A stretch of DNA of 63,433 nucleotides, the filler included, from Psammoneis japonica (taxonomy: Eukaryota): assembly GCA_008632985.1 (NCBI GenBank). It is 3 parts of 3 records of this genome, joined end to end, with 100 filler letters (N's around TTAATTAATTAA, not from the genome) between each part and the next. Parts side by side here need not be neighbours in the genome. Positions count along the whole stretch, not along the records: positions 1 to 25,868 come from QPGO01000425.1; 2 more parts are not named here. The stretch is one strand, 5' to 3'. Positions 3,628 to 36,230 of this stretch are shown in pieces. A model generated the notes under the pieces. The model made no database searches. It had not been told where the DNA came from and was given only the letters and a program-made list of their open reading frames with translations. Numbering within the stretch: the first letter of the stretch is position 1; every line of letters starts with the position of its first letter. Both the position numbers and the translations under genes were made by a program.

Positions 3628-4249
3628 CGCGTTTGTTTCATTGTTGCCATGGCAAATTTTTCTGCGAAAGATTTTTCAGCGAGATCTTGGAACAACGGCT
3701 GCCGTCATTTCTCCCTCCACTGTGTGATCAATTGGTTCCTCCTCTTTTAGGTGGAACTCTCTAGATCGAAGTCTGAAACCGAAAGATTTTGGATTGCCGC
3801 CCTCGCTGCCATCAGAAAACAGAGCCATGACGATTGCCTGCACCAATCATTTTGCTGCATTTTGCGCCGGGCGTTCGAATTAATTGTGACACATGACGGT
3901 TATTTCGGTGCGCACTTTTGCGCGACCCACGCGACATGACTAACATGCGTTAGTGCGTGGTGCTGGTTGTTTTGCTTCTGACCGTTCTGTCTTCTGTGAG
4001 GTTTCATGAGGCTGTCTGTGCATGTTGATGTTGTCCAGTTGTGCATGTTGATGTTGTCCAAGGCAAGCTGCGTTGGATTAAGTGAATGTGGAAATGTACG
4101 AAATTTACGCATTGTTGCAGTTTCTTTGCCAAACAGTCAGTCCTCATTTGTGGCCACACTCCATCCGCGGCGGCTCAAGTGAAAGTCCATGTGTGTGCAT
4201 TTTGCGCATTGATGTGGTTGTCTTTGCTGAACAGTTGTTTGTAATTTGC

Positions 4250-4720
4250 TCAATTCCATTCTTTCTGGCCATGCTTCTTCTGAAGGGACTTTGCTTGCTC
4301 CTTCTCCTGCTCCGCCATCTCCTCCTTGGTGAAAAATCTCCCCGACCACTGTGGAATCGCCGCTGCATGTGCTGCCTTTAGCTCCTCCATGGTTGAATCA
4401 TCCTTGGGCGCGACTGTTGTTTCCACATGATGACTGTCCGCTGTCGTGTTGTCTTGCAAAAGTGCAGAAGTGACATCAAAATTTCCCGAAGTGGGGTCAA
4501 ACGCCGCTCTTGCTTCTTCCAAGGTAATCTCCTCTTCGTCTTCCTTGTTCATCAATGACTGAAGAAGTTCCGCACGTGTCTGCACCTTTTTCTTGTCCTC
4601 ACCAGTTTTCTTTGGCTCGTCTGCCTTCTTTGTTTGTTGCTGCAAATCCATGTTTTCTCTGTTGCTGCGTTTTCTGTGACGGTTGCGTTTGCGTTTCTTG
4701 GTTTGTTGGTTAAAATCCAT
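4250..4720 (-). CDS. Hypothetical charged protein, probably part of the Helitron-like element
   Basis: 156-aa ORF rich in K/E, with no Tyr, in TA-depleted sequence directly downstream of the Rep-helicase. Confidence 0.35.
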   Translation of the reverse strand: MDFNQQTKKRKRNRHRKRSNRENMDLQQQTKKADEPKKTGEDKKKVQTRAELLQSLMNKEDEEEITLEEARAAFDPTSGNFDVTSALLQDNTTADSHHVETTVAPKDDSTMEELKAAHAAAIPQWSGRFFTKEEMAEQEKEQAKSLQKKHGQKEWN

Positions 4721-4866
4721 TCGACGTTGTGTGACGCATGTGTAGATTTCTGCGCAATGTGCTGATCTAATCGAAACATTTCATTTTACGAAATTTCCGC
4801 ATTTTTACGGTTGGGGTCGCTGGGTGGTTGTGCAGTGGTTGAGCATCCCAATCTAATGTTTGCGCG

Positions 4867-7800
4867 CTACATTGACATTTCTGCGCACTGTTGCTGAGAA
4901 AAACACGTGGCGCTTCTCTCCTTCATGAGTCTTGTCAAGGCTTCGCAGCCTTCTGGGACCTTGCATTTTCGCAGGTCCTTGCCCAGTGGCTTTCGCATGA
5001 ACAGCCCTTCTCTGGTCTTTGCTCTGGAGAGCACAACATGCACCCAATTCTGAGTGTAGCTCCAAGAGTGTACAAACAACTGCGGGACTCCACTCCCTTG
5101 CAGTTTGTGCCCTGCAGTGGCATTGTTGATGACAAACGGCAGCTGGGTTGCCTTCAGTTGGAAAGTGTGCCTTTGTTTGTCGCCTTCTTCTAAAATTAGG
5201 CTGGGCTTGGCGATGCAAGCCCTGAAAGCACTTGTTTTTGGCTCAACTAAAAACTTCGCGGGGTCGATGCTTTTGTTGCAGTGTTCCAGTGCAACGTGGT
5301 CTACCTGACTGGCAAGTGCAGCAGGAGTGCTGATGTTGTTGTCTAAAGTCACTGGTCTTGGTTCCTGTCCTGGTTTGAGAACGACCTTGTCAACAGTGGC
5401 TTGCGTTCCGTTTGCTTGACCGTTTGCTGCATTTTCGTTGAAAGGTGTCATGACTCTGCATCTTCTGTAAATTCGCAAGACTGGATCCATTCTTCCTGAT
5501 TGCATGATGACGTGTCCTTCACCACAGTTGTTCCAGAAGCTGTTGCAAACCGGAAATGGTTGGTGGAGTCTCGTGCCATTCTGCACCTGCAAGTCGTCAC
5601 TGAAAATCAACATTGAGTCAAGGACGTCTCCATCTCTTCCATGCAGTGTTTCTGCTCTTTTTTTGAACAGGCCAGTGTCAATTGCATCTCTGTCCTTATT
5701 TGCGCATGCAGCACAGCAGAGGTCACTGGGCAGATCATCTTTGTTCTGAACCACTCATTCGTTGATGTGCTCTGTGTCGTCAACTGCAATCTCACCAGTG
5801 CGGAATCTCTCAAGCAGTTTTCCCCATGATGGATCGTCTTTAAACCTGTGTACACCACGAAGTTCTGTGTGGCAGTTGATCCACTCGTGAAACTCGGGAC
5901 ATGCATCTTTGCATGGTGGCTTCACTCCTTTTCCGACTGGTTCTAGTTGCCTGAGGTCACCTGCGAAAACAATGTTCATGCCACCGTGCGGCTTGCTCAA
6001 TTCGCTCTTCAACACTGTCAAATTCTCATGGAGTTTTTCTAGTTCTCTCTTGCTTGCAAAAGAAATCTCGTCTGCCACCAAAAGTCTCGTGTCTGACCAT
6101 GCTTCAATTTGCTCTTCGGCCATTTGCTTTCTTCTCATGAGGTGTGCAACTCGGTGGATTGTGTCCCCTTTGAGAACAGTTGCAGCCACTCCGGTCAGTG
6201 CAGTCACTCTGATTGTGCTTGTTGTGAACGGCTGCTCAACAAGCAAGCAATGCTCTCTTCCGCATTCCACGACGAGGTCCATTGTGGTTGATTTGCCACT
6301 TCCACCTGCACCATGTAAAAAACACACAAGTTGCAACGTTCTGCGTCTTTGCACTTCCACGAGTTTCTTCAATCGGCGAAGGTTTGTTGCGAATTCGTGT
6401 CTGCTGTTTCTCCTGTTGAGTCCATTGCGTGACATCTCGTCTTGAAGAGCGTCTTGACAGCAAGTGAGCACAAAGGTTCCTGCTAGAATTTCAAAGGCAC
6501 GCTGCTGTTGCCCATCCAGTCTTGCTTTCCCAGCCCAGTCTATGACACTTGCTGCAGATCCGTTTGCTTGACGCACATCGACGTGTTCTTCCAAACCTGT
6601 CATGTCCTCAAACGACCTTCTTGTTCTTTGCGTTCTAGTCAGTGTCACTCGAACAACATCGTCTCTTGACAGTGGTCTGCTGTGGATGTGTTGTTGCACA
6701 CCTTCATTCTGGTCTTCCTCGTCGGTGTCATCGCTGCCCTCTAGATTCTCAAAAAGTTGTCGTTCATCAACCTGGTTTTCCTCGTTTGGTGGGTCAGTGT
6801 GCATGTCTGCCAAGCATTTGCAGCCACCCATGTGTGAACCTTTCTGTCTTGCACGTTTGCCGCTCAAATGCGCAGGAACAACTGCTTGGTTGCTCAACCC
6901 AATGTCATCGTCTTCTGGCTTCTCTGCCATTTCTTCCAAGAGTGCATCCAGCAGTTGACCCTGAACGGCGCCTGAAAGACCTTCTTCCTCGTCACTTTCG
7001 CAACAGTCAAACGCAACGTCAGCAGGTCTAAATTGCTCCGTCTTTCTTTGCAGATCGTCAGATGTGCTTTTGAGACGAAGGCAGTTGGACTTGGCCTCCT
7101 GTGGGTTCTGCAAGAAGTTCAAGTTTTCCTCTGCAATGACACCGGCCACTGCGGAGAGTTGGAATTCACGCAGGTGTGTGTGGGTTGTTGGTTTGAGTTC
7201 CGTCATTGTTCTGTGAGGCGCAAACAAGGCCAATGCCAACTTGCAGTGCAATTCTTTGTCCAGTGTTGTTGGTTGCTGTGGATCTACAAGGCAACCACCA
7301 AACTTGGCTGCATCAGGAAAATCACACTGAAGTGCTTTTGACAATCGCGGCTGCTGTTGCTGTCTGACACCTTGAAGAAACTTGTTCTTCGTTGAATTGT
7401 AAGACGGGTGCCTGTGCGCTCTGTTGTCGAACATCATCATGCCGTGTTCGTTTTTCCTTGTGTTGCGAAGAACTTCGCATTCACTGAAAAACGCAAACGG
7501 GCTGAGATTCTCCAGTGCTGTTGGACGACACAGGCAGTGCAAGGCCTGGCATTGGAAGAACGGTGCATCGCCAAAATGGGCTGCAGTTGCAGACACTTCG
7601 TCTCTTTCTAGTGTGCTGACAATGTCTTTCAAGGGGCACCATGCGGTCAAATGAGATTCGATGAAACGGCTTCCGTTCCTTGTCATGCAAGATGCAAGTG
7701 GTGGTCCAATGACGTTCGTCTTGTTGTGCAAGCAAGCACCCCATGTGAGACGTCTGATTGCTTCCGATGCATCAGATGTGTGTTTCCGTAATTCCGTCGC

Positions 7801-10518
7801 TGTCCTGTTTGCAGTTCAAAGCACTTCGTCGTACGATGCAGTGTCATCTTTCTGGGTGTCTTTTAGGATGTGCCCAATTGTGTGTTGAGCAGACGGTCCA
7901 GGCATCAATGAAGCAATGTTTGTGTTGCATGTCAGTTTTGATCTGCTCATTGCAGGGCACGACACGTTTTGAAAAGCATTGCACTTTCTCCTCTTTGGAA
8001 CAACTTCCTTCATGCACCGACACGCAAAAGTTCCATCCCAGCTGAACCACTTTATCTGAGTGTCATCTGCGTTCCTTGCCAAATTGTTTGGACACGAAGC
8101 AGCTGGTTGCCTGTGACGGCAGTCACCTGGTTTGAGCTCCTCTCGTTTCCTTTTCCTTGACTGCATGTCCAGTTCCTCGTGTGGGGTTTTTTTGTGCATT
8201 TTACGTAACTCTGCGCATTTGGGAAAACACGACTTCGTAACGTGCATGTGATGGTTGTAAGCTGTGTCCGGCACATGTGCCTCCATTGTCCCTTGCGGAC
8301 CACTTCGCTGGTGTTGTGCACACATTGCTTTTAGTCGCTTTGCATGGCCATCTGGATGGCAAGTCAGGCCAGGTGCACGGTGCCGTGACTGTAAAAAGCT
8401 TTCTACAAACTCGACGTTTGTCCAGTGCTTGGTGCAGTGACGACAACAAGCAAACATTCCATTCTTCGACTGCTGGCCGTCTTCATGCCTCAGGTTTCTT
8501 AGCTGTTGGTCGTCTGCCACTTTTGGAGAGGTGCGACACATTTTTGGCACTGCACAGTCATGATCGAATGCTTCGCGCAACGCGCTGGTGCTGAAGTCCT
8601 CGCCACAGATTAATTCCATGCTGCAGATCTTCTGAACTGTGTTGGCAAGGTGCTCAGCACCTTGGCGTCGGATCTGTCTTGTTGGCGAATGCAGTTTCTC
8701 TCTTGCATTGTTGATCGATGCGAACCAGATCTGCATGTGTCCGTGTGCTGTTGGACGTCCCTGCTCCTCAACTGCAGCTAAAAATGCGGCTGGCCTGCCA
8801 ATGTAGAAGTTAAAGTTTTCTCTTGGTTGGTCAGCACTCAGATCCCAACCCATTGCCTCTTCTGTTGCAATGTCAAACAAGCACTCGAGTGCAAAGGCTG
8901 TTAGACCGGGAAACTTTGGACGCAGTTCATTACGTTGCTCAGCCCTGCTAGCAAGAATTTCGTCCGTCAGTTGTGTCACGTCTTCGTTTGGGTCCAGGAT
9001 GACACCCGAGCACAGTTGTGCAAGAAACGAACTTGCATCGTCCGGACTGACGGTTAAGAAAATGCCACCCTGACCAAAATGATGCTGACAAGTTTTGGCG
9101 TTTCTCCTCATTTTCTTTGCTGCTTCGTTGCTGTGTGGCAGAGACGCAGATGCAACGTTGAGTGCGCGCAAAAAGTGGTGCCCGAGTCCACAATCTCTTC
9201 TCTCGCCCAAGTTGCGATCATGAACAGTTCCATCCACATCGTCCACTGTTGGTTCGTTTGCAAACTGTGCAGCCTGATTCTTGTCCCTGACTTTCCACCC
9301 TGCGCTCTGTGGCATCCTTTGCTTCATTGTCAAGTTGCAGCATGTTAACACGAAGAGCTGCTCATGGAAGTGAGGCTGGGAAATCCGTGCCAAGTGGTCG
9401 GCACAGTGTGCAAGGTTGGTGCCATCTGCAAGACTTCCGTCTTTCTTCATTCTCGTCTCATTGATTCCTCCTCTGCCAAAAGGAAACTGCAGCAGACACG
9501 CGTCAATGAAGTTGTTGCCTTTGAAATCACTCGCAGATTCTTTGGACAACTGTGCTTGTGCCTCTAAATCAAATCCGTTGGCAGTGGCTTCGTGCACAAG
9601 ATCTTTGAAGCAGCCCAGGTTGCGCTGACCACCGGTCGCAGGAGACATGGTTCCATCAGGAAAGCAAACATGAAATGACTCTGAGGTCTCAACATTCGCA
9701 TTTTCTCCTTCTTCTTCGCCGGTGCCATCGACAAGTGCGGGACTCCGCAGATTGCGCCTGACTTCGTCTAGATTTGTCTGTTGGCACACCCACTCTTGGT
9801 CATGGTGCAACAGCCATTCCATCGCCCTTGGCATGTGGTGCGTCCCAATTCTGTTCTTTGAACGTGCAAGTTGTCTTTGCTCTGGAGTCATCTTTCCAGT
9901 CATCAGTGCAATCACATTCTGATGTAAATTCAGCACGTCGAAGTGCACAACAGTTCTTATGATGCTTTGCATCTTGACTTTGCAGTGTGTCATGCTTCCC
10001 TCAAGCTTCTTCTGTTTGCCGCCAAGGTGGCTGAAGCAGCACCCGCATGTTTTCACTGGTGTGAGCATTGCCAATTCTGCTTCAGTCAGAGACAACAGTT
10101 CGTGCGGCGGGGCACTGAAACAGCAGTTGTTCGCCATCGCGCACATTGGCACAACGGCTCTTCCCAGGCTTCTTCGGCATTCGCTGCAGCAAGTGAATCC
10201 ATCGACGCATCGTCTGTCTTCCTGCACCACGCATTGGGCGTGGGGAGAAAGCAGCAGGTCTTTGATCCAATCAGCATCTTCATGCTCTGCAGTGCAGCAG
10301 GACTTGAGACGATCAGATGCGCTGTTCCAGTCTGAAGGGGTGAGCAAGTTTCTTGCTGATTCCAATGTTTCGAGTGGCAAGTGGCAAACTTCTCTGGGTT
10401 TCAGCAGAACGTCACAGACCAAACATGCGTGTGGTCTAAATTCTCCGTCTCTGTGTAGATGAAGCATCTCAAACTTTCTGTTGATTGCATTGCAAACACG
10501 GGAGTTGGCCTCGTCCAT
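4867..10518 (-). pseudogene. Helitron-type Rep (HUH)-Pif1 helicase, about 1880 codons in one frame with two in-frame TGA stops (7816-7818, 5755-5757)
   Basis: Rep motifs GIFLTVSPDD, VEEQGRPTAHGH (HUH) and QHTIGHILK (Y-x3-Y motif mutated). Helicase motifs GAGGSGKS, ALTGVAA..GDTIH, DEISF, FAGDLRQLEPV, HKLQG and HVVLSRA. The three ORF-track pieces are contiguous and in frame. Confidence 0.92.
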
Positions 10519-10610
10519 TTTAATTTAAGCTGATGCTTTGACTCAACAAATTTCAAGAAGCCACTCAGCAAAAACAGTTGTTTTTTCAGTGCGATCACCG
10601 TGAAGCTGCG

Positions 10611-11280
10611 ATCGGTGCCATCCAATCACCGCAGCAATGTGTGTTTTCTTGCCACCTGCAGCACTGCGACTGGTGTCGTCCAGCCACCGCAGTGGCTCTG
10701 TCCAGTTGATCAACGAACCGCGTCGGTGCTGCCCGTTCACCGCAGCGCTGTGTCGTCTTCTCACAACCTGTGCAATCAGGTCGCTGCGAGTGCTGCGACT
10801 GGTGCTGTCCAGTCACCGCAGCCGAGTCAATCAGTTGCTTGACGAACTGCGTCGGTGCCACCCGATCACCGCAGTGTTGTGTCGTGTTCTCACAACCTGT
10901 GCGATCAGGTCTCTGTGAGAGCTGCGACTGGTGTCATTCAGTCACCGCAGCTGAGCTTGTGCGTCATCTCACAACCTGCGTCATGAGGTGCAGCGCTGTG
11001 TTGTTCACTCACAACCTGTGCAATCAGGTTGCTGTGAGAGCTGCGACTGGTGTCGTGCAGTCACCGCAGCCAAGTGAATCAGTTGCTTGACGAACTGCGT
11101 CGGTGCCATCCGATCACCGCAGCGTTGTGTCGTGTTCTCACAACCTGTGCAATCAGGTCTGTGTGAGAGCTGCGACTGGTGTCGTCCAGTCACCGCAGCT
11201 GAGCTTGTGCGTCATCTCACAACCTGCGTCACCAGGTCACTGTGAGAACTGAGAACTGCGATCGGTGTGGCCCAATCACC
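10611..11280. repeat. Imperfect modular tandem repeats (about 60-130 bp units) upstream of the Rep-helicase
   Basis: Recurring blocks GCTGCGACTGGTGTCGTCCAGTCACCGCAG and CTCACAACCTGTGCAATCAGGT, about 5 copies each. Confidence 0.85.
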
Positions 11281-12090
11281 GTAGTTGGATGCTTTTCGTT
11301 TCCCTTTGCGCAAAGGTTCTGTCACAAAAAAGTGAGACGAAAGTGTGCCTCTTTCACCTTGACGGAAGAGTGACGTGTGTGTTCCTCCCACGTCCTTCTT
11401 CGCACCAGACGTGCGATGTCCTGCTTGGTTTCGTCAACGTTGAACATCCCATGGGATGAGATTTGGATCTTGTTCAAGTTGTTTTGACCATCTGCTCTGA
11501 ACATTCCATGGGGTGAGATTCGGATCTTGTTCAAGTTGTTTCGGCAATCTTGGTGGTGGGCGCAGCTTTACGCAAATTCCGCAGAATCATGCTTTGACGA
11601 GTGGCGGGGCAGTTGCGTTGGTCGTGTGGCAATGACAATGCGATTGACATCATTCGTGTTTCCAAAGTGCGCGCGAATCCTCCAAATGGGTGATGGGCCC
11701 ACCTTGGCTAACTGCCGGTACAGCATGCAGTGACAGCGATGGCGTCGACCGTTTGGCGACTAGATTTTGTGTGCGATGGCCGCGCGGCAGCAACGGCTGA
11801 AATGCACACGAAGCATGGACGGAATTGCACGTGATTTTACACATTTTCAGCAAACTTAGCACGACTTTGCGTGCTCCGATCCTTGCATCTGTTTTGTTCA
11901 AATTGAATCCACACACCACTTGCAAGTGCTGACACCTGGAAGGTTGCCTTGTTGCAGTTCGACGTGTTTGAATCTGGTTGCTGACGTTGCCAGTTCTCCT
12001 TGGCATGATGCACGCAGCTCTGCTGGGTCTTTCTTGGCACTTCTGAACGATCGCACTTTTTGTTCCCATAATTTCTCTCCAACTGATTCG

Positions 12091-12963
12091 ATGGCACGCA
12101 AAAGAAACACAACGACCTCCCCGGCTGTGAAAGCCAAAGTCGCCGAAACCAAACAGAAGAAGGCAAAGACGAAGTTTTCTGATGCTCTGTTGAAGAAACT
12201 AAGTCCGCCCTGCAAGACCAACGGCTTGACCGACGACGACCTTAAACCGGAAGACCACCTTGCCAAGCACGGGTTCAAGCTTTCCAAATCCGCCGGTTCT
12301 GACGATGGCAGCCATTCCGATGAGGACGCCCTCCTGCGCTGCGCCACCATCACTGTCGGCTGCAAGAAAGGCATCGTTTTTCGTCTCCAAGCCAAGAATC
12401 CCCTTTCAACCAATGTTTGGTTGGAGAAGGTTCTGTTTGACAACCTTCGCAGCAGGACACCGTGGGCGGTTCAAGTCGGATTCCACCCTTGCGCTGGCAG
12501 GTGGGTTCACGAGGGCGAGTTGCAGACGAACGCCAAGAACTGCACCGTGCGTCTCTTCTTCATCTTCCTCGAAGAAGTCCCAACCGATGCTAAAGTGCGC
12601 GGCCTCGGGAAGTGCATTGCGAAGCAGCTGAACGATGACCCTGAGAACAACACCGAGGTCTTCGTTGAAGACGACTTCTTCTGGATGAAGGATGCTGTTT
12701 GGTCCAAAGTGATCGGCAACGAGGCGGCACTTGCCGAGCTTCAGAAGGAAGGTGGTCAGTTTCACATCGGTTGGTGTGCCCAAAACAAGAACTCACTTCA
12801 CAGTTGCTTCTACGAGGGGTCGTTGCCTGTGGAACTCTGTCGTCTCATTGGAGCTCCGGCAGAAGAAGCTGGAGAAGAGGCCGACGATGATGTCGAGCTC
12901 AACTGCGAAGTTGACCTGAACGTTGATGACGACTTGGTGCTTCAGGACAGCGACGAAGACTGA
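12091..12963 (+). CDS. Hypothetical protein with a basic N-terminus and acidic C-terminus
   Basis: 290-aa ORF from ATG 12091 with protein-like composition and a single Tyr. No family recognised. Confidence 0.6.
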   Translation: MARKRNTTTSPAVKAKVAETKQKKAKTKFSDALLKKLSPPCKTNGLTDDDLKPEDHLAKHGFKLSKSAGSDDGSHSDEDALLRCATITVGCKKGIVFRLQAKNPLSTNVWLEKVLFDNLRSRTPWAVQVGFHPCAGRWVHEGELQTNAKNCTVRLFFIFLEEVPTDAKVRGLGKCIAKQLNDDPENNTEVFVEDDFFWMKDAVWSKVIGNEAALAELQKEGGQFHIGWCAQNKNSLHSCFYEGSLPVELCRLIGAPAEEAGEEADDDVELNCEVDLNVDDDLVLQDSDED

Positions 12964-13054
12964 GTTTTTTTTTTTTTTTTTGCCGGTGTGGTGTAAATTT
13001 GCAAATGTTTGGCAAACTGAGTGTTGACTGCAACTCAGCTTTTCCTCTGTCTCT

Positions 13055-14005
13055 TCAAATGTGTGCCATCTCCGACAATGACTTTACGTCACCGCGAAGC
13101 AATGGCGAATTGAGCGGAGTGGCTAGTGTGTGACGTCCAGTGCAGTGACAGTAAAAAAACAGTTCAGTTGAGTTCTCAAGCAAAATTGGCCATTTCGCGA
13201 CGGGCAAATGCTTCCGTTCCAAGTGTGTCGGAGTGGGACGTCGCATGTGCTGGCTGGTTGACTGAGAAGTCTCCTCTTTCTTGGTGTGCTTGTGGAAGAC
13301 GAGATGTTTCACGTCTCCGCTGTGCCACAAAAAGTCGCCATCATGGCAATCCGCCGTGAAGGACTTGTGCATCCACTCTCCCGCGTGCGACGCGAACAGC
13401 GGATCTAGCACCACCACCACGGTCCCAGCACGACACAACTTCGAAAGCATTGCCTCTGCCTTCTGCTGTGTGTTCTTGTTGTCGACCACACGGGAGTTGC
13501 AGTTGTTGAAGAACACCTTGAGTCCTTTCTTTTTCCACAAAGGAGCCAGCCTTTCGTCCAAGAATGACTTGTTGATCAACTCTAACCCGCCGTTCGAGCG
13601 AAGGCCAGCACGATGAGCCCAACGTACAGCCTCTTGGTGACGATCGTGGTCGGCCTCGATGCTCACCACGGTGCAACGGCGACGAAGTAACTTGAGCCTG
13701 ATGCTGGGTCCGGCAACTCCCCCGCCCATGTCGACAGATGTGTCGCAGGTGTGATTCACGCCAAGAAGGCGTTTGTTCAAAAACACTTCGCTGCTCAAAG
13801 CAAAGCCAACTTCGCCGCCGTGCGAAGTTCCGCTTCCGTCTCCGGAGACACGCCTGCTCTGGAACGCGGAGTCCGGAGCCGTTTGAAGACAAAACTCCCT
13901 GACACTTCTGTGATGATGGTTCATCGCACCCAACCTTGTGGCAACATCAACCTTGCTTGCAGCGGGTTCGACCAGACGTTGCGTTTCCAAACCAAACTGT
14001 GGCAT
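13055..14005 (-). pseudogene. DOT1-like class I SAM-dependent methyltransferase (mutated)
   Basis: Ordered motifs GTSHGGEV (YGE-like), VDMGGGVA (DxGxGxG), VSIEADHDRH, SFLD, VFFNNC (FxNN) and GTVVVVLDPL match the DOT1 motif order. Confidence 0.65.
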
Positions 14006-14371
14006 GCACAGAATGCGTAAAATTACCGTCGCGCCCTCTACGCGCGCGAAATTTTCAAACGCGGCGTGCTGCCTCTACCTGCGCATGGAGCGACGTGTGA
14101 AGTCATTTTAAACAGACATGTGGACGCGTTGAAATAACAAGATGCCTTCAGGCGGTAAAATTTGTTTTGAATCTCGGCCTGCTTCTCATCATTGCCGCAC
14201 TTGCATGTCCATGTGATTCAAACGCACGAGCTGGCATGGCACATGACGCACTTCTACGCGAGAACTCGCACTGAGATTGCCGTGGGATGATCCTCCCTCC
14301 GCAGAGACAAAAACAACGCGACAACACTTCCGTCATCACATTTTGAAACACATTTCAAATTGAGACACACC

Positions 14372-15826
14372 ATGTCGCAACTGCCTCGTGCCTCGCTGCG
14401 TCGTCCCACCAACGACAAGCACTTGTCGCGATCGAGTTACAGCCGGTCTCGACAGTGTGGGGGTTTGGGACGTGCAGCTCACAGCCCGACAACAAGCAAA
14501 CACTTCTCGCGATTAGGTTTCGACCCCACTCCCCTGGAGTCCGCCGGTCCCTGTCAACAGAGTTTTGCTTTGGGTGCTCTTGAGGCAACGGAAAGCAGAC
14601 ACATCTCTCGATTGGGTTTTGACCCCACTCCCCTGGAGTCCGCCTGTCCCTGTCGACAGAGTTCTGCTTTGGGCACTGTTGAGACGACAGTGACATTGTC
14701 AAGCAGCGGAACATTTGCCGGCAAGTTCGCACACACATTCTCTGCGAACACCGCATCGTCAATGCGCACCAGGACACACGAGAACGTGTTGAGGGCTCAA
14801 CCGCCACTTCGCAAGGCCCACCGCAGCTGCAGGCGAATCCGCAGCCGTGCCAGCAGGAAAACATCCAAGATTGCTCGCCTCGTTCCACTCACACCGTGCG
14901 CTGCTAAGAGTCTCTCCGTACACCACGTAGCTGACCGCACTCCAGTTTATAACGGCGACCACACTCAGCCTGCACCACCTTGTCTTGCTGACATTGACTT
15001 TGCCGAATTGGCTCCTCTGGTCGTCTGTGACCCTGTGCTCGATCTGAAGCCTTTCTTTGGCTTGGACGGTTGCCGCTGCGACAACACCTGCACCCTGCTG
15101 CCACATTCTGCTGTGGTGTTCAGCTCCCCCAACCCAGCAGAACTAGTTGCTCAGTGCCGAGCGCTCGAAGCACTAGAATGCTGCACTGCCCAGTCCACCG
15201 TGCACGGCAAACAACGCGTTACCTTCATGGAGACGGACAGGAGCAAGCATTCCACGATTGGCCTGGCTGCCACGAGGGACGCTCGAATTTCTTGCAAGCA
15301 GCCTGGCATGGCCGACCAACACACTCACCACCTCACCAGACTTCTTTCACGCATGGAGCACCTTGTCAATGAGTGCGTGGACCATGCCATCCTTGAGGGC
15401 ATCACTCGTGTCAAAAAGTTTCACAACTGGAAATCCCTGGTGCGGTCAGATGGCATTTTCTCCTCTCTGGTGGCTGGGCGCAATGTCTTCCTCAATGCCC
15501 ATCGGGGCCAGGACTTCTTCCTGTCAGCAGTCACCGTGGTGGGAGTCCCTCCGTCCGGCAGCTGCACCATGAATGACGGGATTGTGGCTCAGTTCTGCTT
15601 CCCTGCCGAAGGCATCTCCGTTGCACTCCGGCTTGGTGATGTCATCATTTTTAACCCCACCAAGTGCCGCTGCATCTCCAGCAGGACAAACTCAAACGAC
15701 GAGTTCTTCTGCGTGTCTCTCCACCTGAAGAGTGCTGCAGTGGGCAAGAACAACAATTCAATCCCCCTTTCTCTAGAGGAAGAGACCATTCTCAGGCGAC
15801 CACGACAGCACAAAATAACTTGCTAA
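14372..15826 (+). pseudogene. TET/JBP-like 2-oxoglutarate Fe(II) dioxygenase (C-terminal domain, mutated)
   Basis: NVFLNAHRGQDF (HxD, with D->G), FCFPAEGISVALRLGDVIIFN (FPxxGxxVxLRPGD), KCRCISSR (distal His ->R) and CVSLHLK. The N-terminal part contains a ~100-bp tandem repeat (14506-14672). Confidence 0.65.
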
Positions 15827-16027
15827 ATTTGCGTAAATTTGCTGACTTTCTGCACTCAGGCGACTGTGCAGGCACCCACCAATTCACTGGATTTGCGCAA
15901 ATTTACCGACTTTCTGTTCTTCCTTGTTCTCATTTTTCGAACCACAACTGGGGCTACGCCTTTCCAACTAATGCTGCAGTTTCGCTGAAAAACACCAACA
16001 CACTGTGCCACTAATTTACAGAGCACA

Positions 16028-17488
16028 CTACACGGCAAACGTTTTGCCAGACGCAGAGCTTCTCCCCCCCGACTTGGGGAGTAGACGCGATTTCTTCTTC
16101 CGATTCATGGCACCCGACGTCGCCTTCCTCTTCTTCTTCTTCTTCTCTGATTCATCCAAGTTGCATCTGCAGAGAAATTCCTCCCCGGGCATGATTTGCT
16201 TTGTGACTGCCAAGCACCTGTCGTTGTAGAACTCGCAGTTGTTGTCCGCGTGTTGGCTTGCCTTGATCTTCTTCTTGTCCTTGAACGACTCGGTGGCATC
16301 GTTCACGCAGTGCATTCCGAGGTAGAGTGAATGGGAATTCTTGTTCCCTGGACCGCTAAAATCAAGCGGTTTTGGCTCCACTGTGACGTGGTGGCCCTCG
16401 CTGTCACGGATGGTGGAGCAGTGCACGCTGTGGTCTTCTCCAAACTTGCTGTCGTGGTCATGCCACGAGCAGCTCCTCGTCGCACTGGGCACCCTGGGGC
16501 CCACGTAGATTCCAACCGCACTGCCTTTCTGGAACTGGCGCAAAGCAAAAAAACCAATGCCTGCGCCCCTCCGTTGCAACACGCGCAGCTTGCCCACCTC
16601 CACCTCCTTGGGGCCTGCGGAGCGAACGGACTTTTCGAGGCAAAACAACGCAGGTTGAAGTGACAAGGCGCCTCATCCAAATGTGCACACTTCTGTGCTT
16701 GCTCTCTTCACGAGATGGACCAGTGCGAGCGACCACCCCGCTTCGAAAGCCTCGACGGCGGTCTTGAACACTTTGTTGCTCTTTGGCGTCGAGTCTGGGA
16801 TGCCCCTCTCGCCGACTTCCGTGCGGTGCCTCCACACCCACTTGCAGTGTTCGCCGTGAGCATTCACGACGGCTTCAGGGTCGCTCCTGATGCACCCCAG
16901 TTCTCCCAGCGCGGGGAACCAGAGGTCGGGATTGTTCGGCGCATCCTTCATCAGGCACATGGACTCCTGGAATTTATCGGATTTTTTGTGCCGCAACACC
17001 CAGTCCCACAAGTCGAATGACGGATCGTTGGGGTCCGGAAATTGCTTTCCTTCTTCTTCCTCTTCCGCCGTTGCTTTCGCGACCACTTTGGCTGCGGGCT
17101 TGGCTGCCTCCTCGCTTTTGCCGCTGCAAAAAGGCAGGACCTCCGGTTTCACAAAGGTGGCCTGATCACCCACCAACTCGATCTTGCAACCGGCCTTGAG
17201 GAGCTGCTCGGCGGTGAAACCCAGCTGCTGTGCTTCATTCCAACCACAAATTTGAAAGGTTGGCTCCGGCGGCATGGCTTTCTCCCTCTTTTCAGTTTGG
17301 GACTGCGCCAGCTTCTCCGACATCCTTGCGCGTTCGGACTCAATGGACACACCCTCGGCACTTCCCTTGGTGCCAAGTGCAGTCATGGCAGCTGCCGCCG
17401 TGCCTTCGGCGCCCGTGAGTTCTGCCATGACTTCCGGAGCTGCTGCATCCTCTGCTTTGCCAGACGCAACGATGTTGTCCTCCGCCAT
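16028..17488 (-). pseudogene. SET-domain protein with a long N-terminal extension and one in-frame TGA at 16673-16675
   Basis: GAGIGFFALRQFQKGSAVGIYVG, MHCVND..NNC and QIMPGEEFLCRCN (GEELxxxY with Y->C). ORFs 16673..17515 and 16028..16666 are in the same frame. Confidence 0.8.
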
Positions 17489-17715
17489 TCTAGCGCCGTG
17501 ATGACAGAGCTGCACTCACTGCTGTGTGGTGTGCTGCTTTGTTCCAGCCGTTGGCGATCCACATCCTTCTGCGCATGCAAACGCACGACACTTCGCACCA
17601 AATTCCACGCAGCGCGTCTGCACCTGTCTGCGTCCGTCTTTACTGCTGTGCGCACTGCGGTGCTGCAGCGCACCCTTTCAAACCTTCATCAATGTTCATT
17701 TTTTCCTTCCTTTTC

Positions 17716-20157
17716 CTTTTCTCTTCTTCTTCTGTCTGGCTGGGAGGAGCTGCTGGATGGCCGGCCTTGTCGTCTGTTGTCGCCCAATGTGGGGTGTGCT
17801 CAGTCAATGAGATTTCCTGTGGCAACTGCACAAGCAGCAGACCGCATTGAGCATGGTCTGTGAAAACATTTCTTTGACATGCAGCTGTCCAAGCAACAAA
17901 CCACAAACAGCAAAGAAGATGAGCTCATGACAAGTGCACCACGCCATCTTGCTTTGCCAAAATGATGGATGCGACCACCAAGCCAAAACTCGTGTTTGAG
18001 CAACTGGCAGCTGTGACAATGCAGGACCCCTTTCACACGTTGTCACTTGAGACATGTTTGACACTGGAGGGCACAATTGCCAGGGAACATTCATGCTGAG
18101 AGATGCCATTGCTGAACCACCTGATGGCAAACACAAAGAAAAAAGATGAAGGTGTGAGTGTGAGCAGGGAATTTTCTCTGTCGCCCACAGCCCACAGTGC
18201 TGCTGATCTTTGCTCACCATCACAAATGAAGTGCATGTCACAAATGGGAAAGGAAGCATTGGGTTGAGGTGCCACACTGCTCCACTTTGGACACACAGAT
18301 GTCTGAGGTGCTGTCAATGCATTGTGCTGTTGTGTGACGTTTTGGCGATCGAACCGCTTTCTGCTGCTCCAGCACAGAAATTCTCACAAGTGCAGCACAT
18401 CATGACAGGCAGAAGCACCAGTGTGATCCATGGGTTGTCATTTGTGCATGCACTGAGTGTGCAAACTTGTGTGCAGACAACAACAGACAATTTGTGCACC
18501 TCTGTTGACAGTGGCAGAGATGCCACGATGCAGATTGCGCGCTGCCCGCCCCTTTGACCCCAGTGACCAGACTGCTGTTTGACCCTCAAGCAGGCTGTCA
18601 CTTCACATGGAGCATGGGAATGAGCCCATGGAGTTGTGGCAACAAAGAGAAAAAAAGTCTGATTGTGCAAGCAGGCCAGCATGCCAGACTCTTGCTTGGC
18701 AAGGAGCCAGCCGGCGGGCACCTGGGTTGGCAGTGGACCTGAGACAGACTTGCCAGCAACTCACTTGCCTCAAGATGTCCAAATCTTTCAGGTGCATCAC
18801 TCTGTGCTGGTGCTGCAGGACCTGCCAGATCTCACAGTGACCCCACTAAAAGCAGGCACCCAGCAAATTTTGCTGCAGCAGGCTTGAACACCCCTGTCAT
18901 GGAGGCATGTTCCTGGGACAACAGTTGCTTCAATGATGCATGAGATTTCAGCTGGAGCCAGATGCCTCAGGGCTGCTGCAGTGCAAACCTCCAGATGTGT
19001 TGATGAGGTGCTGCCAAGCAGCACACCACAAGCAAGACTTGCCACCAGTGGCACACAACACAGCTCCTTGCTGCCCAATGATTTGCTCAAAGGCACAAAT
19101 GATCCCTGCATGATGGGGTGCATTGCCAAAGAGAGGCACCAGCTGTGCAACAAGCACTCAGTGCCCAGATGCATCAGACAAGTCAGGATTTTGCTGCAAA
19201 ACAAGCATTGCCAGCACCCAAGCACTGCTCTTGTCTCAGTGGCAAATGATGTTGCCATCTCCCTGTTTGCTGTTTGCCAGCCAAGCAAACGTTGCCTGCC
19301 AGCACCAGGCTTGTGTGCTGCAGGCAACTTTGGTTGGAGCTGGCACAGTGCCCGCCACTCTTGCCACTTGCACATGAGCAGTTCTGTGCTTGATTTGTTG
19401 TTTGGGAGCTGGAGAATGTTGAGCCAGGAGACCCTCAGCTCCAGCACTCCTGGGTTTGACAAACCCAGTTGACCACATGGAAATGAGGATTGGCTCCATC
19501 AACAAGAAAACAGATGGCCCCACCAGCACCAGTGCCCAACTTGACAACAGCACTCATCAATGATGCTCTTCATGAACAGAAGAATGGCCAGGCCCACATC
19601 TTTCCACTCTGCTGCTTTCAGATGTGCTGCACGTCCAAGTGCAGCAACACCACACTTTGCAGGTCTCAGGGTTGATGACAATGAGCACTGAGACCAGCCT
19701 CAGCTTGCAACCCAGAGGCACCATGCCATCACCAAATCCCAGCCCCTGCCAGGAGGCAGAGTCCAAAAGCCAGATGGAGAGCATCCAAGGTCCTGCAGCC
19801 TCACCAGAAAAAGAACTGCTGTGTCAAATCTGTGAGGGTGTGAAGACCACCAGCTGTGTCCAAAAGAAAAGGGCACAGAGATTGCTGTGCAGCTGGTGCA
19901 AAGCCAACTGGAAACACAGTGGGAGACCAGCATGGACAGATGGGCTGCTCTGCTGAGATGCCAACACCCCTTTTTCCATGTGTCCTGCCAAAGCATCATC
20001 CTTTGTGCCAGCACCAGCCCAAAAGTGCTTCTGCACAGTCCTGCCACACCATCATGAGCCACCACACAGACCAACTGGCAGAGATCGTTGGAGGCAACAT
20101 TGACCAGCTTGACCACACAGATTCAACTGCACTTCTCTGCCATCATCTCACCAGGTC
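17716..20157 (+). repeat. Second copy of 818-3258 (DIRS-like fragment), about 99% identical
   Basis: Colinear direct repeat at offset 16898. Differences are mostly transitions. Confidence 0.95.
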
Positions 20158-21099
20158 TGCAGCAATTTCACAAACTGCCACCACCTTTGGTGTGCCACAC
20201 ACTTCCTGACATCAGCTGCCTGCTCATGGCCCCCATGTGTGTTTCTGGGCATGCTCTTGCACTGATGTTGCCCTTTTCAGATGGCATTTTGTTGGGTCCC
20301 CCAACACCCTTTTGGCCACTTCTGTCATTGGTGTGCCCCCTTGTTTCAGCATCATGTGCAACAATTTTCAGTGGAAAATGCCTGGCATTGACGCCTTGTG
20401 GTTCACATGCTTGTTGTCTCGTTCAGCAATTTTTTTTTCTGATTTGGTGCATTTTGCATTTTCTGCACAGGATCTGGTGCAAATTCTGCACGCTTCAGAA
20501 ATGTCCACCAATGATCATGACATCTTCAATGCAATTGTCCTCCATCCACACCTGTCAGCCCACAACATTTTCTTTTTCTCCTGCCAGCTGCTCAAGTCCT
20601 TCACCTCATGTGGTGAAAGCAGCCTGGTGTGGTGCTTGCGAGTGTTTGTTTGGACAAACCATTGGCGCCACTTGATGGCTGCCCATTTGCTGCCTGGATT
20701 GGCATTTCTGAACAAGATTCAGTGTCAGTTCCACGTGAGAATGACATTTCTTCCAATGTCCTTCTCATCATGTCATCAAGGCTCTCCCTGTTTCATGCCT
20801 GCAAGTCCTGAACACCCCCTCTTTTCCCCACTGACCTGCCAGCCTTGCTGCTCTGAGCAGCAAATGGTTTGATTTTCTTTCGGTGCATGCAAATGTGAAA
20901 CTCAGTTGGTCTTTGTTGACAACAAGACTCATCCTTGGAAGGAAGGTTTTCCTTTCAGAGTTTGCACTGACTTTGTGTCCTGTTTTTGTCATGATTGTTC
21001 TTTGCTCCTGTGGTGGTTTGGGGGCTTTGCATCCTCTAAAAGAAAGTGACAATCTCATTTCTGTGCAGTTTCATCTCACCCAGTTGTCTCTGTTGGGCA

Positions 21100-22610
21100 G
21101 CTCCATCTGGAAGTGCCGCAATCTGCTGATCACACAAACTTCTGCCGCACCCCTTGCAGGGTGCACTGGAAGTGTGTGGGTCAGCTGGCACCGGCATTGC
21201 TGGGCAAAGGTGCAGCAGCACTTTAAGTTGGGTTTGAGTTTTTTTGGTGTGCCACCCAGCATGCACCTTGCATGCAAGACAGGTGGCCATGGTGCCCCTG
21301 TCATGATCAAGACTGCCATGGTCCCTTGCATGCAAAAAGATGCCACCACAGTGCGTGGCTCTCACAAATTGGCTTGGGAGTGCCCAGAGTTCCTGCAAGG
21401 TTAAGATGCCCAACACAGCTCAAAAGCTGCTCTGGATTGCCCCACCTTGTGAAAAGGTCTCAAACCTTTGAGTCAGCTCAACTGGCATCATGCCCCAGCA
21501 TGGTCAACTCCCAAGAGCCACAGTGGGCTGCTCTCATCACAGTCTCAACAAGAGGGCACTCTCTCCCTCTCTGTCTGTGTCTTGCTCCTCTGGAGGCCAC
21601 ACAATTTGGTTGGGCTGAGCACTCTGGCAACTTGTCATTTGTGCTGGCCTGTGTGCTTCAGACCAGTGTGCTTGGTCAAAATTGACATTGCTGATGGCCT
21701 CTGATGTTGCACATGTGGCTCTGCATCCCAAGGTGGCACACCACAAACCCAAGCACACTCAAACCTCAAGGTTTCACAAAACCAACTGCTGCTGGGCTTC
21801 TTTGCCAGCTCAGTCTGATGCCTCCAGCACTTCCGCTGTCACACCAGATGTCCAAAGTGAGTGTGCGCCTGCTGCCCAAACACCATGCAACCCCCCCCCC
21901 CCCCCCAATGCAACCCCCCCCAACCTTGCAACCACCAGGCACAAATGGCAGCAGTGACCACTGTCTGCACTGAAAACTTTGCACAGAAGTGCCGCACCTG
22001 GGACACAGCACCATGAGGGCAGCCCAGTCATGTTTGCTGAGCTCTCCTTCACATGATGCATGGCATCCTCCAATCAGTTGACATTCCTCAGATCTCAGTC
22101 ACCAAACAGATCCAATCTCCCTCAAGATGACATTGAAAAGAGATGTGTGCTCGTCAACGTGCAAGAGTGTCCCAGACTTGACCAAGTCATCATCAACCAT
22201 TGTGCCTTGCCAAACTCCTGCCAACCATGCCACCTGCTCAAAGGAACCCATCTTTTGACAAGCAGCACAGCCCCCTGGGTGAGCGGTGGTCAGCGGCATT
22301 GGGGCCATTCCTGGTGCCCCCCAAGGGCTCCTCAGCCACTTTCAGGGAGCACTGCACTGCCAGAAAAAAGCCACCTTTGACTGTGCACAAAGAACTCTGC
22401 CACACCTTGGCAAACTGACACCCTTGCCACCCACCCTCTCAGGCTTCCATGATGCTGCCAGAAAAGGAGCAGGTGGTGTCTGGCTCCCAGATCCCACCAT
22501 CACTTGCCATGACCTGCCACTCCAAACCCTCCATCACAACAAACCAGCACAAGTGACTCCAGATGAGCCTGTCCCCACCCTGTGGAGGCACAAATTCCCA
22601 CCATCAAATG
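21100..22610 (+). mobile_element. Degenerate DIRS/Ngaro-like RT-RNase H fragment
   Basis: GAPVMIKT..KDATTVRGSHKLAWECPEFL, VKIDIADG (RT), and GFHDAARKGAGGVWLP..PTLWRHKFP (RNase H). Confidence 0.65.
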
Positions 22611-25600
22611 AGTTTGTTGTCAGCCATTGGATGCCCACTTGTGCCACTCTCCTGCTTCTCCACTCCTCAAGCTCAAGCTCCAACCCAACCAAGTGGCACT
22701 TCTTTGTCGCTGCTGCAACAGCAACAACTGGTCAGTGAGAAGAACCCACATGCTTTGGAGCCAGCCTCTTTGCTGTCCAGCTTTTGATTTGTGAGTGGTC
22801 TGAAGCTCAAGCTCCACAAACAGAACTCCAACATCAACTGCCTGTGTGCCAGAGTTGCTTGCACTGTTTGAAGCAGCAGCAGCCACAGATTGTTGCAAAA
22901 AATGCACAGAAACACAATGATGTGTGACAGGAGAGGATGCACAAGTGTGGTCTTGCACATGGCACAGGAAGCCTGGTTGGATGAGTGACACTGGCAGCAT
23001 CAAAAACATTGATTGAGGTGTGGTGCATTTGTCATGTTTGCATGCAACAACTTGGAAATGATGTCCTTTGACAATTGTGGCATCATTGGTTGCAACATGC
23101 ACATTGCTGAAATGTTGTGACAGCACACCATGCACAAAGTTCATCAAAGCAGATTTGTGCCTGCAGTGCAATGCAGGAGACTGCAAGCTGTGCCATTTTG
23201 CCAAAACAGAGTGGCACCCAAGAATTTGCAAATGCCCACTGCCATCTTTGAGATTGCTGCACGCACCATCATCTTCCATTTTGGTGGTCTCATTGTTGGA
23301 AATCTTGTCATCAAAAAGCCACTGAGCCCGTCCACCACCATCATGGCACCTCACTTTCTTCTTGGCAGTCGTGGCATCTGGAGGGGGCTAGCCAAGATTT
23401 TTCAGCTGCTTTGCCCTGCTCAAGAAGTGGCTTCTCTGTTGCCAAAAGCTCTGTTCAGAGGAGCAGGCAGCCTCATGCCTGCTTGGCAGGTTCTTTGTTG
23501 TCATGAACAAATGCTCTGAGCTTCCAACCAGCCTTGTTGCAAGCAAAGGAGCAAAAACCACTTCTCTCACAGGGCAGGGGGGGGGGGGGAGGTGAAGTCT
23601 CCTTGTGTGCCAAGAAGTTGCAAGATGGTTGCTGAGCAGCTACAAAGATTGCTGTTCTTGGCAACTGTGAGAGCTGGTTCTTTGCCAGCACGTGTTGTCT
23701 TGAAATGAAAAATCATGTGAAGTGTGCAATTGCTTTGCACACTCTCATGAATGTCTTCATCCATGAACAAGGAGCCTTTGCTCAGCACCAAGTGCAACCT
23801 TGGGGGGCAGTCAAGTGCACAATCCTCGTGACGTGGGCCACCCACAGTTGACTTGCAGTTGTGTCAACATGCATTTGCACAAGCTTGTGGAGTGTGCACT
23901 TCTGGGTTGTGTGACTCCACAACAAAGATGTTGCTGGCATCTGCCAGCTGTCAACATGGGGCACAGGATCCAACCAGATTTGTGCAAAAGGATGCTGCCA
24001 ATGATGAAAGAAGACAACTTTGCTCTGGCTTTGAACAGCACAAGGTTGATGACTCCAACAATTGCAGCTGCAAACCACAAGCAGCGTGCTGAACCACCAT
24101 GAAGCAGTGGTCTAGTTTGCACAGCACACTGCACTCCTTGGGCACTTTGGAGTGCTTGGAAGTTGTGGCATGATCAAGACATTGCAGGTTTTGGAGGGGA
24201 TGCTCCATTGTGCCTTTTGTGTGGGGGCAGCAGCTGTCATGATGGCCATCTCCTTGCACTGTCACCCCAAACAACAGCCATCATGTTCTTTCTCTCTCTC
24301 TCCCCCCCCCCCCCCCCCCCCGCACACATTGCTGCTTCTTCTGAGTTGCGCCAGCTGTTCTCCATGTGGATGATGGCAATCCAAACATCAGCTGGGACAA
24401 ATTGCCTCTTTTTTTGTCATTCCTCCAAGACTGATGTCAAAACTTCTCAGCAACTTCTTTGCTGCTTCTGACTCCAATGGTCAACTTGACAGTCAACAAC
24501 ACACAGTGGCATTGCCCACACAGCTGAGTTTCTCTGGACATTTGTTGGCCATTTCTTGGGCTTTCATTTTGGACAAGATGCGCCCTTAAAGACAGCTTTC
24601 TGATCCTGAAATGGCTCTGAAGCCCTTGTGCCTTTCAGGTCAAATTTTGTGAAGCTGACATTTGAAGACATGATTTTTCTGTGTCTCCCTCTGGGTCTGG
24701 ACTGGGCTTGTCCACTCTTCAGCCACAGTGGCTGTGATTGGCGCTGCAACAAGCACCCAGTCAATCCTGTCTTGACTCAAATCATTGCTTGCGTTTTGCT
24801 GTTGCAAAAACCACCTCTGGCAAACTGTTGCAAGCTGAGTCAAAAATGGGAGTGCACAACTTGAACAATGCACCGTGCTGGTTGCAGTGCCAGCTTTGTC
24901 AGGCAGTTGCGCCAATGACAGAGAAACCAAACAGCATCGGAGGGGACACTCTGTTGTGTCTACGTTTGGGGGAGCGGTGCCGCCATGGTGTCGCATCTCT
25001 TTGCATTTTCTTTCCCGATGTCAGCATGTTTTCTACGTTAAATTCTACGCGATTCAGCAATTTTCCAAGTCAGTTCTTTCAGCACAAATTCCATGTACAA
25101 TTCTGCGCGTTTGGCCAGAATTTTGAGTCAAGGACCGTGTCAGGTTCATCCTCTTGTTCTTCTCACCAATGTGCTTCCTTTGAGTTTTCTTTCCAACACA
25201 CTGCAATTCATGATGGATGTTCTGCGGCATTCCAAAGTGGGTCGCCACAAGTCTTCCAGCTGGTTGGCATTTCCAAGTCTCGATGTTGCTCCTCTTGCTC
25301 TTCGACATTGCAGCTTCAGCACACAATTTCTGTGCAATTCTACGCATGACGGAAATTTCATCTGACAATTCCGATCATCATTTCCTTTCCTTCGTTGGGG
25401 TCTGTGTTGGACTTTCTTGGGTGTTTTTCATCCCAGGAATTTCTCTCACATTCGCTTCAAGCATGTTGTCTTCGGAGACAGACACGTGTTTAGTTTTCTG
25501 CAGTGTTTGTTTTGGTGTCTCCCAAGTGGTGTGGCTGGGCTTGTCCATTCTTCGAGGCACAGCAACTGTGGTTGCCGTGTGACAAGCATCCGGTCAGTCA

Positions 25601-25868
25601 CCATTCTGACTTAAAACAAACAGCCTCTTTCTGATGATGTGTTGGCGGCATTGCCTTTGGACAATGTGTCAATGGCATTGTCTTTCTGACAATGTTTGAC
25701 AACGGAGGTTCTTCAATTGTCCCTGCCGCCCTTTGTGGGTGCTGGGGAACGTGGGTCTGCCATGGTCGGTGTTGGTGTGGGCGGCAGTGAGGCAGCGGCA
25801 AGGTGGATTTCTAGTTTTGGTTGCAGTGCCAGCTTTGCACCCCAGCATTTTGAGTGAACAGCTTTGCA
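22610..25868. other. Unclassified, heavily mutated repeat-like sequence
   Basis: Almost no TA and, to about 24900, almost no CG. Only short Cys/His-rich ORFs and no recognisable domain. Confidence 0.4.
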
Positions 25869-25968
25869 NNNNNNNNNNNNNNNNNNNNNNNNNNNNNNNN
25901 NNNNNNNNNNNNTTAATTAATTAANNNNNNNNNNNNNNNNNNNNNNNNNNNNNNNNNNNNNNNNNNNN
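25869..25968. other. Artificial contig linker (N44-TTAATTAATTAA-N44)
   Basis: A six-frame stop 12-mer embedded in Ns. An identical structure occurs at 51216-51315. Confidence 0.95.
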
Positions 25969-31751: not shown

Positions 31752-31879
31752 CTGATCGGGGTGGTTTCAACTGCGGGAGCGTTGGCGCATTTGGTGCACA
31801 CATCATTTGCATTCATGTTGCTCATCATGTTGTTAAACAAACCCCACCCAACATTTCATTTGCAAGAGAAGGTAACGAA

Positions 31880-36066: not shown

Positions 36067-36230
36067 AGCCCCGACACCAAGGCCAGACACCTGCGGCTCG
36101 CGCCCACGTGTTTTCGGCCTCCCAAGCCAGCATTGCTGGTGGTCTGAATTTGGGTTTTGTGTTTACCTCTCTATGAGAGGATGTTCTAGGTTTAGACGAA
36201 TCGGCGTTGTCACTGCCGTTTCGCGGGGAC

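Follow-up and report, generated by a model that had tools for sequence, protein, structure and literature searches.

Does a diatom Helitron carry enzymes able to rewrite the silencing marks of its host? This question is raised by a stretch of DNA from Psammoneis japonica (assembly GCA_008632985.1; 63,433 nucleotides in three joined parts, filler included; hereinafter referred to as the window), in which three adjacent open reading frames (ORFs) at 13055-17488 lie close to a Rep-helicase gene. A previous sequence-only reading had described them as intronless ORFs with motifs of a DOT1-type methyltransferase (ORF1), a TET/JBP-type 2-oxoglutarate-Fe(II) dioxygenase (ORF2) and a SET-domain methyltransferase (ORF3), probably belonging to a multicopy rolling-circle element. 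This observation was confirmed in part, and its interpretation likewise gained partial support. On balance, we favor the interpretation that 13055-17488 is the accessory-gene half of an inactivated, hypermutated, high-copy, TET-carrying Helitron relic of approximately 14.5 kb, with SET-like and possibly DOT1-like cargo. Transposons that encode rewriters of silencing marks give a direct view of the arms race between genomes and transposons; the examples documented to date involve TET genes, in fungi and in a single green alga.

The Rep-helicase, located 2.5 kb left of ORF1, was confirmed as that of a Helitron. It is a pseudogene (4870-10524, minus strand) consisting of a single frame of 1885 codons with in-frame TGA codons at 5755-5757 and 7816-7818. 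Pfam identified Helitron_like_N (E = 2.1e-7) and DUF6570 (E = 3.7e-8) in 7816-10518 (minus strand) and PIF1 (E = 1.9e-15) in 5755-7731 (minus strand), and 4870-5754 joins the same frame as these Rep and PIF1 segments. The hallmark of a Helitron, namely fusion of a Rep (HUH/Y1) domain with a PIF1-type helicase, was present in this one frame, and the HUH-type motif was retained as HGH at the conserved HxH column. The frame is equal in length to the intact Rep-helicase (Rep/Hel) of a metagenome locus, L012 (1885 amino acids), to which it was aligned by tblastn with E-values of 4e-76 (Rep) and 6e-66 (Hel).

The Rep/Hel and every accessory ORF are contained in a high-copy unit of about 14.5 kb, hereafter unit X (3259-17712; minus strand, the sense being taken from Rep/Hel). 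Depth was obtained for positions 600-20500 as the summed depth of contigs from one DNA sequencing run, a quantity that is not equal to copy number. Summed depth was 2230-5312 in all bins of 3256-17863, compared with 51-117 over the left flank (600-3255) and 82, 1.4 and 0 in the three right-flank bins of 17864-19855, a 20- to 100-fold contrast between X and flank. The contig pieces matched to the stretch (n = 3969) fell into identity classes from >99% down to <90%. One contig terminus lies exactly at 3258, and a single contig fuses 4865 to 16842, as expected of an internally deleted copy of X. X is a multicopy unit, as the sequence-only reading had considered probable.

The boundaries of X are defined by depth and by a flanking direct repeat, R, only. 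Copy 1 of R (815-3258, plus strand; low copy, depth 51-117) stops, and copy 2 (17713-20157, plus strand; delimited by self-BLAST, depth and composition) starts, exactly at the edges of X. The two copies are in direct orientation and share 99.3% identity across 2445 bp. Copy 1 is poor in both CpG and TpA, with a CpG observed/expected ratio of 0.35-0.39. The flanking by R may stem from a tandem array that X entered, from a long duplication made when X inserted, or from the assembly itself. An extra repeat is located beside copy 1, where 263-817 corresponds to 872-1426.

ORF2 (14360-15826, plus strand; 488 amino acids) is a dioxygenase pseudogene with its catalytic domain at 14957-15823. Its N-terminal half is of low complexity and contains a 99-bp tandem duplication at 14494-14683 (self-BLAST). 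No Pfam match was obtained for ORF2, including PF12851 (Tet_JBP), and a word-index homolog search gave one match. When 1.84 billion representatives were searched by HMMER, with the last 289 amino acids of ORF2 as the query, 619 relatives reached E ≤ 1e-3, of which 356 reached E ≤ 1e-10, and the protein-atlas neighbors of ORF2 were mostly from Bacillariophyta. The consensus of a 64-row family alignment reads NVxLNxHxDxDF ... FNPxxxHCxSSR ... SLYLKTAVVGGNDNS.

The AlphaFold2 model of ORF2 was confident (predicted local distance difference test score [pLDDT], 90.5; predicted template modeling score, 0.87). With this model, the top ten PDB matches in Foldseek were all CMD1 or CcTet, headed by CMD1 and followed by TET2 and NgTET1, and VIA-align likewise ranked TET2, NgTET1, CMD1 and CcTet highest; sequence identity to CMD1 was approximately 10-12%. 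The confident model together with these matches makes the assignment of ORF2 to the TET/JBP fold sound at the level of predicted structure, the model being closer to solved TET/JBP members than to other 2-oxoglutarate oxygenases. The proposed TET/JBP dioxygenase was therefore borne out by fold and not by Pfam, and its 619 representatives form a family, predicted to share this fold, that standard Pfam annotation has overlooked.

In 63 relatives, the iron triad was almost invariant (H182, 100%; D184, 98%; H238, 100%). ORF2 itself carries D184G and H238R, so that the HxD...H signature is lost along with two of its three presumed iron-binding residues. Among 45 well-conserved family columns (start-Met column excluded), the window sequence differs at 10, and further changes at conserved columns include Y98H, Y212Q, Y256H, R50H and R83H. 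Given the two ligand substitutions, ORF2 in the window is a dead relic of a TET/JBP member and no working enzyme.

To what extent this dioxygenase travels with Helitrons elsewhere was seen from a metagenome scan with a 13-row ORF2 alignment, which gave 212 relatives, of which 80 loci were kept; the Pfam scan of these loci covered 193 of their 229 ORFs of at least 180 amino acids. A Rep/Hel related to that of the window was found beside the dioxygenase in eight of the 80 loci (L001, L004, L007, L011, L012, L018, L050 and L051), seven of which had Helitron domains recognized by Pfam. When only loci flanked by 3 kb or more were considered (n = 38), six were Helitron-linked, another six showed linkage to Plavaka-like transposases and the other 26 showed neither. 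The gene arrangements at Helitron-linked loci were divergent, tandem or convergent, so that several independent lineages are represented. In the dioxygenases of L001, L004, L007, L012 and L051, neither HxD nor the distal His has been lost, and Tyr and TpA contents are normal; at L012, the 1885-amino-acid Rep/Hel is accompanied by a dioxygenase of 405 amino acids with HxD...H intact. In a quick tree, the window dioxygenase was sister to that of Helitron-linked L001 (Shimodaira-Hasegawa-like approximate likelihood ratio test support, 88), with a long window branch. The window locus and intact metagenome relatives such as L012 extend the Helitron-TET partnership to diatom-like marine and freshwater eukaryotes. 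The linkage of the gene set to a Helitron, as originally proposed, holds in that all ORFs lie in the Rep/Hel unit and the dioxygenase recurs; the trio as such was not conserved in the 80 loci, and the dioxygenase is the only one of the ORFs that recurs as a Helitron passenger.

Two further groups were observed among these loci. At L007, L011, L012 and L018, the dioxygenase is directly followed by an opposite-strand F-box ORF of 358-394 amino acids (Pfam E = 9e-5 to 2.5e-4), which may be an additional accessory gene in one TET-carrying Helitron lineage. Loci L039, L043, L046, L048 and L049 share huge ORFs without a Pfam match, 1300-1433 amino acids upstream and 1407 amino acids downstream of the dioxygenase, and may represent an unrecognized mobile element.

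ORF1 (13055-14005, minus strand; 316 amino acids) is a decayed gene that resembles S-adenosylmethionine (SAM)-dependent methyltransferases and is possibly DOT1-like. The sole homolog detected was P0151, a protein of 244 amino acids (53% identity, E = 9e-73). Since the alignment starts at the start Met of P0151 and covers nearly all of its 244 residues, ORF1 corresponds to a whole gene and not to a fragment. In the ESM Atlas, 16 of 30 neighbors of P0151 were DOT1 clusters (score 0.96), and a two-row ORF1/P0151 profile weakly matched an O-methyltransferase among PDB sequences (E = 0.039), in the region of motif I. The strings VDxGGGxG and FFNN(Y)N may also resemble DOT1 motifs. ORF1 is likely a class-I SAM methyltransferase, whereas its membership of the DOT1 family is a lead only: no hidden Markov model (HMM) match upheld the original DOT1 call, which now depends on the Atlas neighbors of P0151 and the weak class-I methyltransferase motif. 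A tblastn search of phages with P0151 gave one match without significance (E = 0.7), and comparison of the ORF1 alignment with viral contigs gave 360 pattern stretches and no relatives.

ORF3 (16028-17515, minus strand) is a single frame, but a TGA codon at 16673-16675 breaks it, so that it is not intact; all three ORFs lie at the positions originally given. The N-terminal 280 amino acids of ORF3 had no assignment, and the C-terminal part (16028-16666) resembles a degenerate SET domain. The Pfam SET profile matched this part at E = 0.0063, with residues 36-166 aligned to profile positions 1-102 of 105. Because the SET family had been specified in advance, the chance of such a match is far below the database-wide E-value, at roughly E/24736 for a single family. 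NCBIfam gave a weak match to the SET part (E = 0.031), to a family that we presume to consist of SET-domain proteins. SET-domain lysine methyltransferases carry a conserved catalytic Tyr and motifs of the NHSC and ELxxDY types; by eye, GEEFLCRC in ORF3 may stand in place of a Tyr-bearing motif. The SET call is backed by a weak Pfam match that spans the profile and scored below the gathering score, as described below. Apart from the weak NCBIfam match, ORF1, ORF3, the frame at 11860-12960 (described below) and their homologs had no match in PHROGs or NCBIfam.

A shared mutation signature had also been proposed for these ORFs, and it proved real when measured as depletion of TpA and Tyr. The TpA observed/expected ratio was 0.10-0.25 across 4-18 kb, compared with 0.5-0.64 in genic DNA; in the repeat-rich parts of the window (1-26000, 30000-36200 and 52000-63433) it was 0.01-0.25, with CpA and TpG reaching 1.4-2.15. 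TA occurred 8.9 times per kb in X versus 32.9 in genic DNA, and the density of TAA plus TAG was halved in X. Among eight repeat ORFs, Tyr made up 0-0.4% of residues in all but the SET part of ORF3, where it reached 1.4%, compared with 2.4-2.8% in host genes. In Rep/Hel, Tyr was 0.32% versus 2.7-3.1% in three intact homologs, and the seven columns with Tyr in all three homologs were occupied in the window by H (three), F (two) and C (two), while conserved F, W, C, H and R were largely retained. Similarly, all nine Tyr of P0151 were replaced in ORF1, by H (four), C (two), L (two) and F (one). The repeat signature looks like a TpA-to-CpA/TpG hypermutation that is unable to create stop codons.

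Such T-to-C and A-to-G transitions destroy TAA and TAG and make no stops, which explains the persistence of long open frames in both orientations; 21 kb contained 62 ORFs of 100 amino acids or more, and the in-frame stops in X were three TGA codons (two in Rep/Hel and one in ORF3). An ORF left open by this mutation process thus says nothing in favor of selection or activity, and the practical lesson is that long open repeat frames in this genome are no sign of function. The copy in the window is dead, and its ORFs are pseudogenes. A rival close to one of the cases named as fatal to the sequence-only reading, in which single-copy host chromatin genes happen to adjoin a Helitron insertion, could draw on the open frames and ordinary gene length of the three ORFs. 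It is contradicted by summed contig depth of 20-100 times that of the flank, by repeat-specific loss of TpA and Tyr in the ORFs that is absent from host genes in the window, and by the lost catalytic residues and the in-frame stop in ORF3, and we give it very little credence.

Several results weigh against the interpretation of X as a TET-carrying Helitron with methyltransferase-like cargo. With regard to the dioxygenase, Pfam Tet_JBP matched just three of the 64 family members (best E = 0.003), and a comparison of the ORF2-family profile with PDB sequences gave nothing relevant (best E = 0.87). With regard to the unity of X, no canonical Helitron termini (5'-TC, CTRR-3' or hairpin, with insertion at A|T) were found at 3259 or 17712, where the DNA is heavily mutated. 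Terminal repeats, whether inverted or direct, did not exceed chance matches of 10 bp, and no subterminal hairpin was convincing; X may therefore be a part-element or a composite. Moreover, depth in the ORF3 region (15.9-17.9 kb) was approximately half of that over Rep/Hel (4.6-8.6 kb). These two observations, and the linkage of dioxygenase relatives to Plavaka-like transposases as well, would fit a composite of adjoining unrelated repeats, in which a Helitron of about 3.3-11.8 kb and another element bearing ORF1 to ORF3 have similar copy numbers by chance. We regard this as improbable, since Pfam revealed no second transposase in X (main ORFs and all other frames of at least 70 amino acids), a contig fuses 4865 to 16842, the closest dioxygenase relative (L001) is Helitron-linked, and 4-18 kb is homogeneous in CpG and TpA composition and distinct from both flanks.

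The remaining adverse results concern ORF1 and ORF3. The DOT1 assignment was without HMM support, ORF1 and P0151 having no match in Pfam (E up to 10), PHROGs or NCBIfam, and the AlphaFold2 model of P0151, based on a two-row alignment, was unusable (pLDDT 34). The SET match scored 17.4 bits, under the Pfam gathering score of 22.4, and the SET part of ORF3 had neither homologs in the word-index search nor a match among PDB sequences. By tblastn, ORF1, ORF3 and the frame at 11860-12960 were unmatched in all 80 loci, and SET, DOT1 or other methyltransferase domains were absent from the 193 scanned ORFs; as a consequence, the three-enzyme set is known from a single element family. In addition, the left end of X, in a high-depth bin, contains a C-terminal fragment of a metacaspase (3247-3675, minus strand; Peptidase_C14, Pfam E = 1e-8). 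This match spans only profile positions 150-231 of 233, the last third of the domain. Helitrons pick up fragments of host genes, and this one probably did so with the metacaspase piece; ORF1 and ORF3 may likewise have been acquired passively.

An alternative is accordingly a Helitron in which the dioxygenase is the sole true accessory gene, with ORF1 and ORF3 being passively captured host copies or fragments that were never of service to the element and form no toolkit. Besides the metacaspase fragment in the same element, it accommodates the recurrence of the dioxygenase alone beside Helitrons elsewhere, and the detection of one homolog for ORF1 and none for ORF3. It sits less well with the alignment of ORF1 to nearly the whole of P0151 from the start Met and with a SET match spanning the full profile, and two chromatin-type methyltransferases beside a TET gene are unlikely by chance; SET genes in transposons also have precedent, according to the available text of PMC12730594. 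We consider passive capture a real but doubtful alternative. In the favored interpretation, a TET-carrying Helitron with additional cargo, the gene order in element orientation is ORF3 (SET-like), ORF2 (antisense), ORF1, the unassigned ORF, Rep-helicase and metacaspase fragment. With ORF1 placed between Rep/Hel and ORF2, and with the deletion joint at 16842 falling in ORF3, both ORF1 and ORF3 are most simply internal to X, but they may be lineage-specific captures.

By analogy with TET-carrying fungal transposons, the dioxygenase of active ancestors would have oxidized 5-methylcytosine or a related modified base on element DNA, and such oxidation might have allowed escape from methylation-based silencing. 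The two methyltransferase-like genes would then be lineage-specific additions acting on chromatin. The anti-silencing role of the dioxygenase is here inferred from that analogy. A fuller scenario, in which a diatom Helitron carried a three-enzyme counter-silencing kit (TET/JBP oxidase, DOT1-like and SET) and the host replied with TpA-to-CpA/TpG hypermutation of repeats that erased Tyr codons and catalytic residues while leaving frames open, is conceivable but on the unlikely side. The locus raises the testable idea that histone methyltransferases have been added to the transposon kit.

The sequence-only reading knew of no description of this combination. As a claim of novelty this is too strong, as Helitron-carried TET genes have been published for fungi (PMC12730594) and Chlamydomonas (bioRxiv 10.64898/2026.10.09.758095). 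In fungi, TET/JBP genes are located on DNA transposons including Helitron1, Helitron2 and Plavaka, and an anti-silencing rationale has been given, as far as the available text goes (Kojima, 2025; PMC12730594). The window element resembles these in combining Rep/Hel and a TET/JBP-type dioxygenase in one element, and in having a dioxygenase family common to several DNA-transposon lineages, including Plavaka. It differs from the fungal TET Helitrons in its diatom-type stramenopile host, diatoms not being mentioned in the available text of PMC12730594; in a dioxygenase family barely detected by Pfam Tet_JBP; and in the addition of a SET-like and possibly a DOT1-like gene, in a hypermutated copy.

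In Chlamydomonas reinhardtii, eight TET homologs belong to a Helitron, and CMD1 is borne by a cut-and-paste transposon, according to the available part of the preprint (bioRxiv 10.64898/2026.10.09.758095). This is likewise an algal Helitron with TET cargo, whereas the host is a green alga, and no methyltransferase cargo is mentioned in that part. The Phytophthora transposons HarbingerS and MuDR carry SET-domain genes (Repbase Reports, cited in the available text of PMC12730594) and, like the window element, are stramenopile DNA transposons with a SET histone methyltransferase gene. They belong, however, to other superfamilies and no TET or DOT1 partner is mentioned there, and the SET call in the window is weak. 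In the literature, as far as the texts were available, we found no paper linking TET/JBP genes and transposons with stramenopiles or diatoms, and, judging by titles and abstracts, no report of DOT1 genes in Helitrons. Given the fungal and Chlamydomonas precedents, the Helitron-TET partnership is already known; what is new here is the diatom-type host, a dioxygenase family that escapes Pfam, and methyltransferases as possible additions.

The mutation signature also has a counterpart. Repeat-induced point mutation (RIP) in fungal repeats converts CpA to TpA and creates stops (PMC12730594, section 4.2, in its available text). Both are repeat-restricted, dinucleotide-directed transition hypermutations that wreck transposon genes, but the apparent direction in the window is a mirror image of that of RIP, TpA being lost to CpA/TpG, which can make no stops. 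No description of a TpA-loss signature in diatoms was found among papers judged by title and abstract.

Other features of X include the unassigned open frame of 367 codons at 11860-12960 (plus strand), between Rep/Hel and ORF1, which has a Tyr content of 0.3% and no match in Pfam, PHROGs or NCBIfam. Upstream of Rep, internal tandem repeats were detected by self-BLAST at 10606-11237, with offsets of 129 and 248 bp and identities of 75-92%. The CpG observed/expected ratio was 0.64-0.97 inside the TET-carrying unit and 0.09-0.39 in the flanking repeats (1-4000 and 18000-26000). A Copia region (30-36 kb) likewise retains CpG (0.94-1.02), so that CpG retention is not specific to X.

Elsewhere in the window, a frame of 975 codons at 33220-36144 (plus strand) matched RVT_2, the Copia-type reverse transcriptase (Pfam E = 4.8e-11), and contained 0.1% Tyr, as a hypermutated retroelement. 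Large satellite arrays, with offsets that are multiples of 23 bp on both strands and a TpA observed/expected ratio of approximately 0.01, are located at 51316-53100, 55672-58380 and 60027-62173. Host genes of normal composition occupy 36700-51100, where Pfam identified GPI2, cyclic phosphodiesterase-like, EF-hand and arrestin-domain proteins. Pyruvate phosphate dikinase was also found within this region, divided among several frames, probably by introns.

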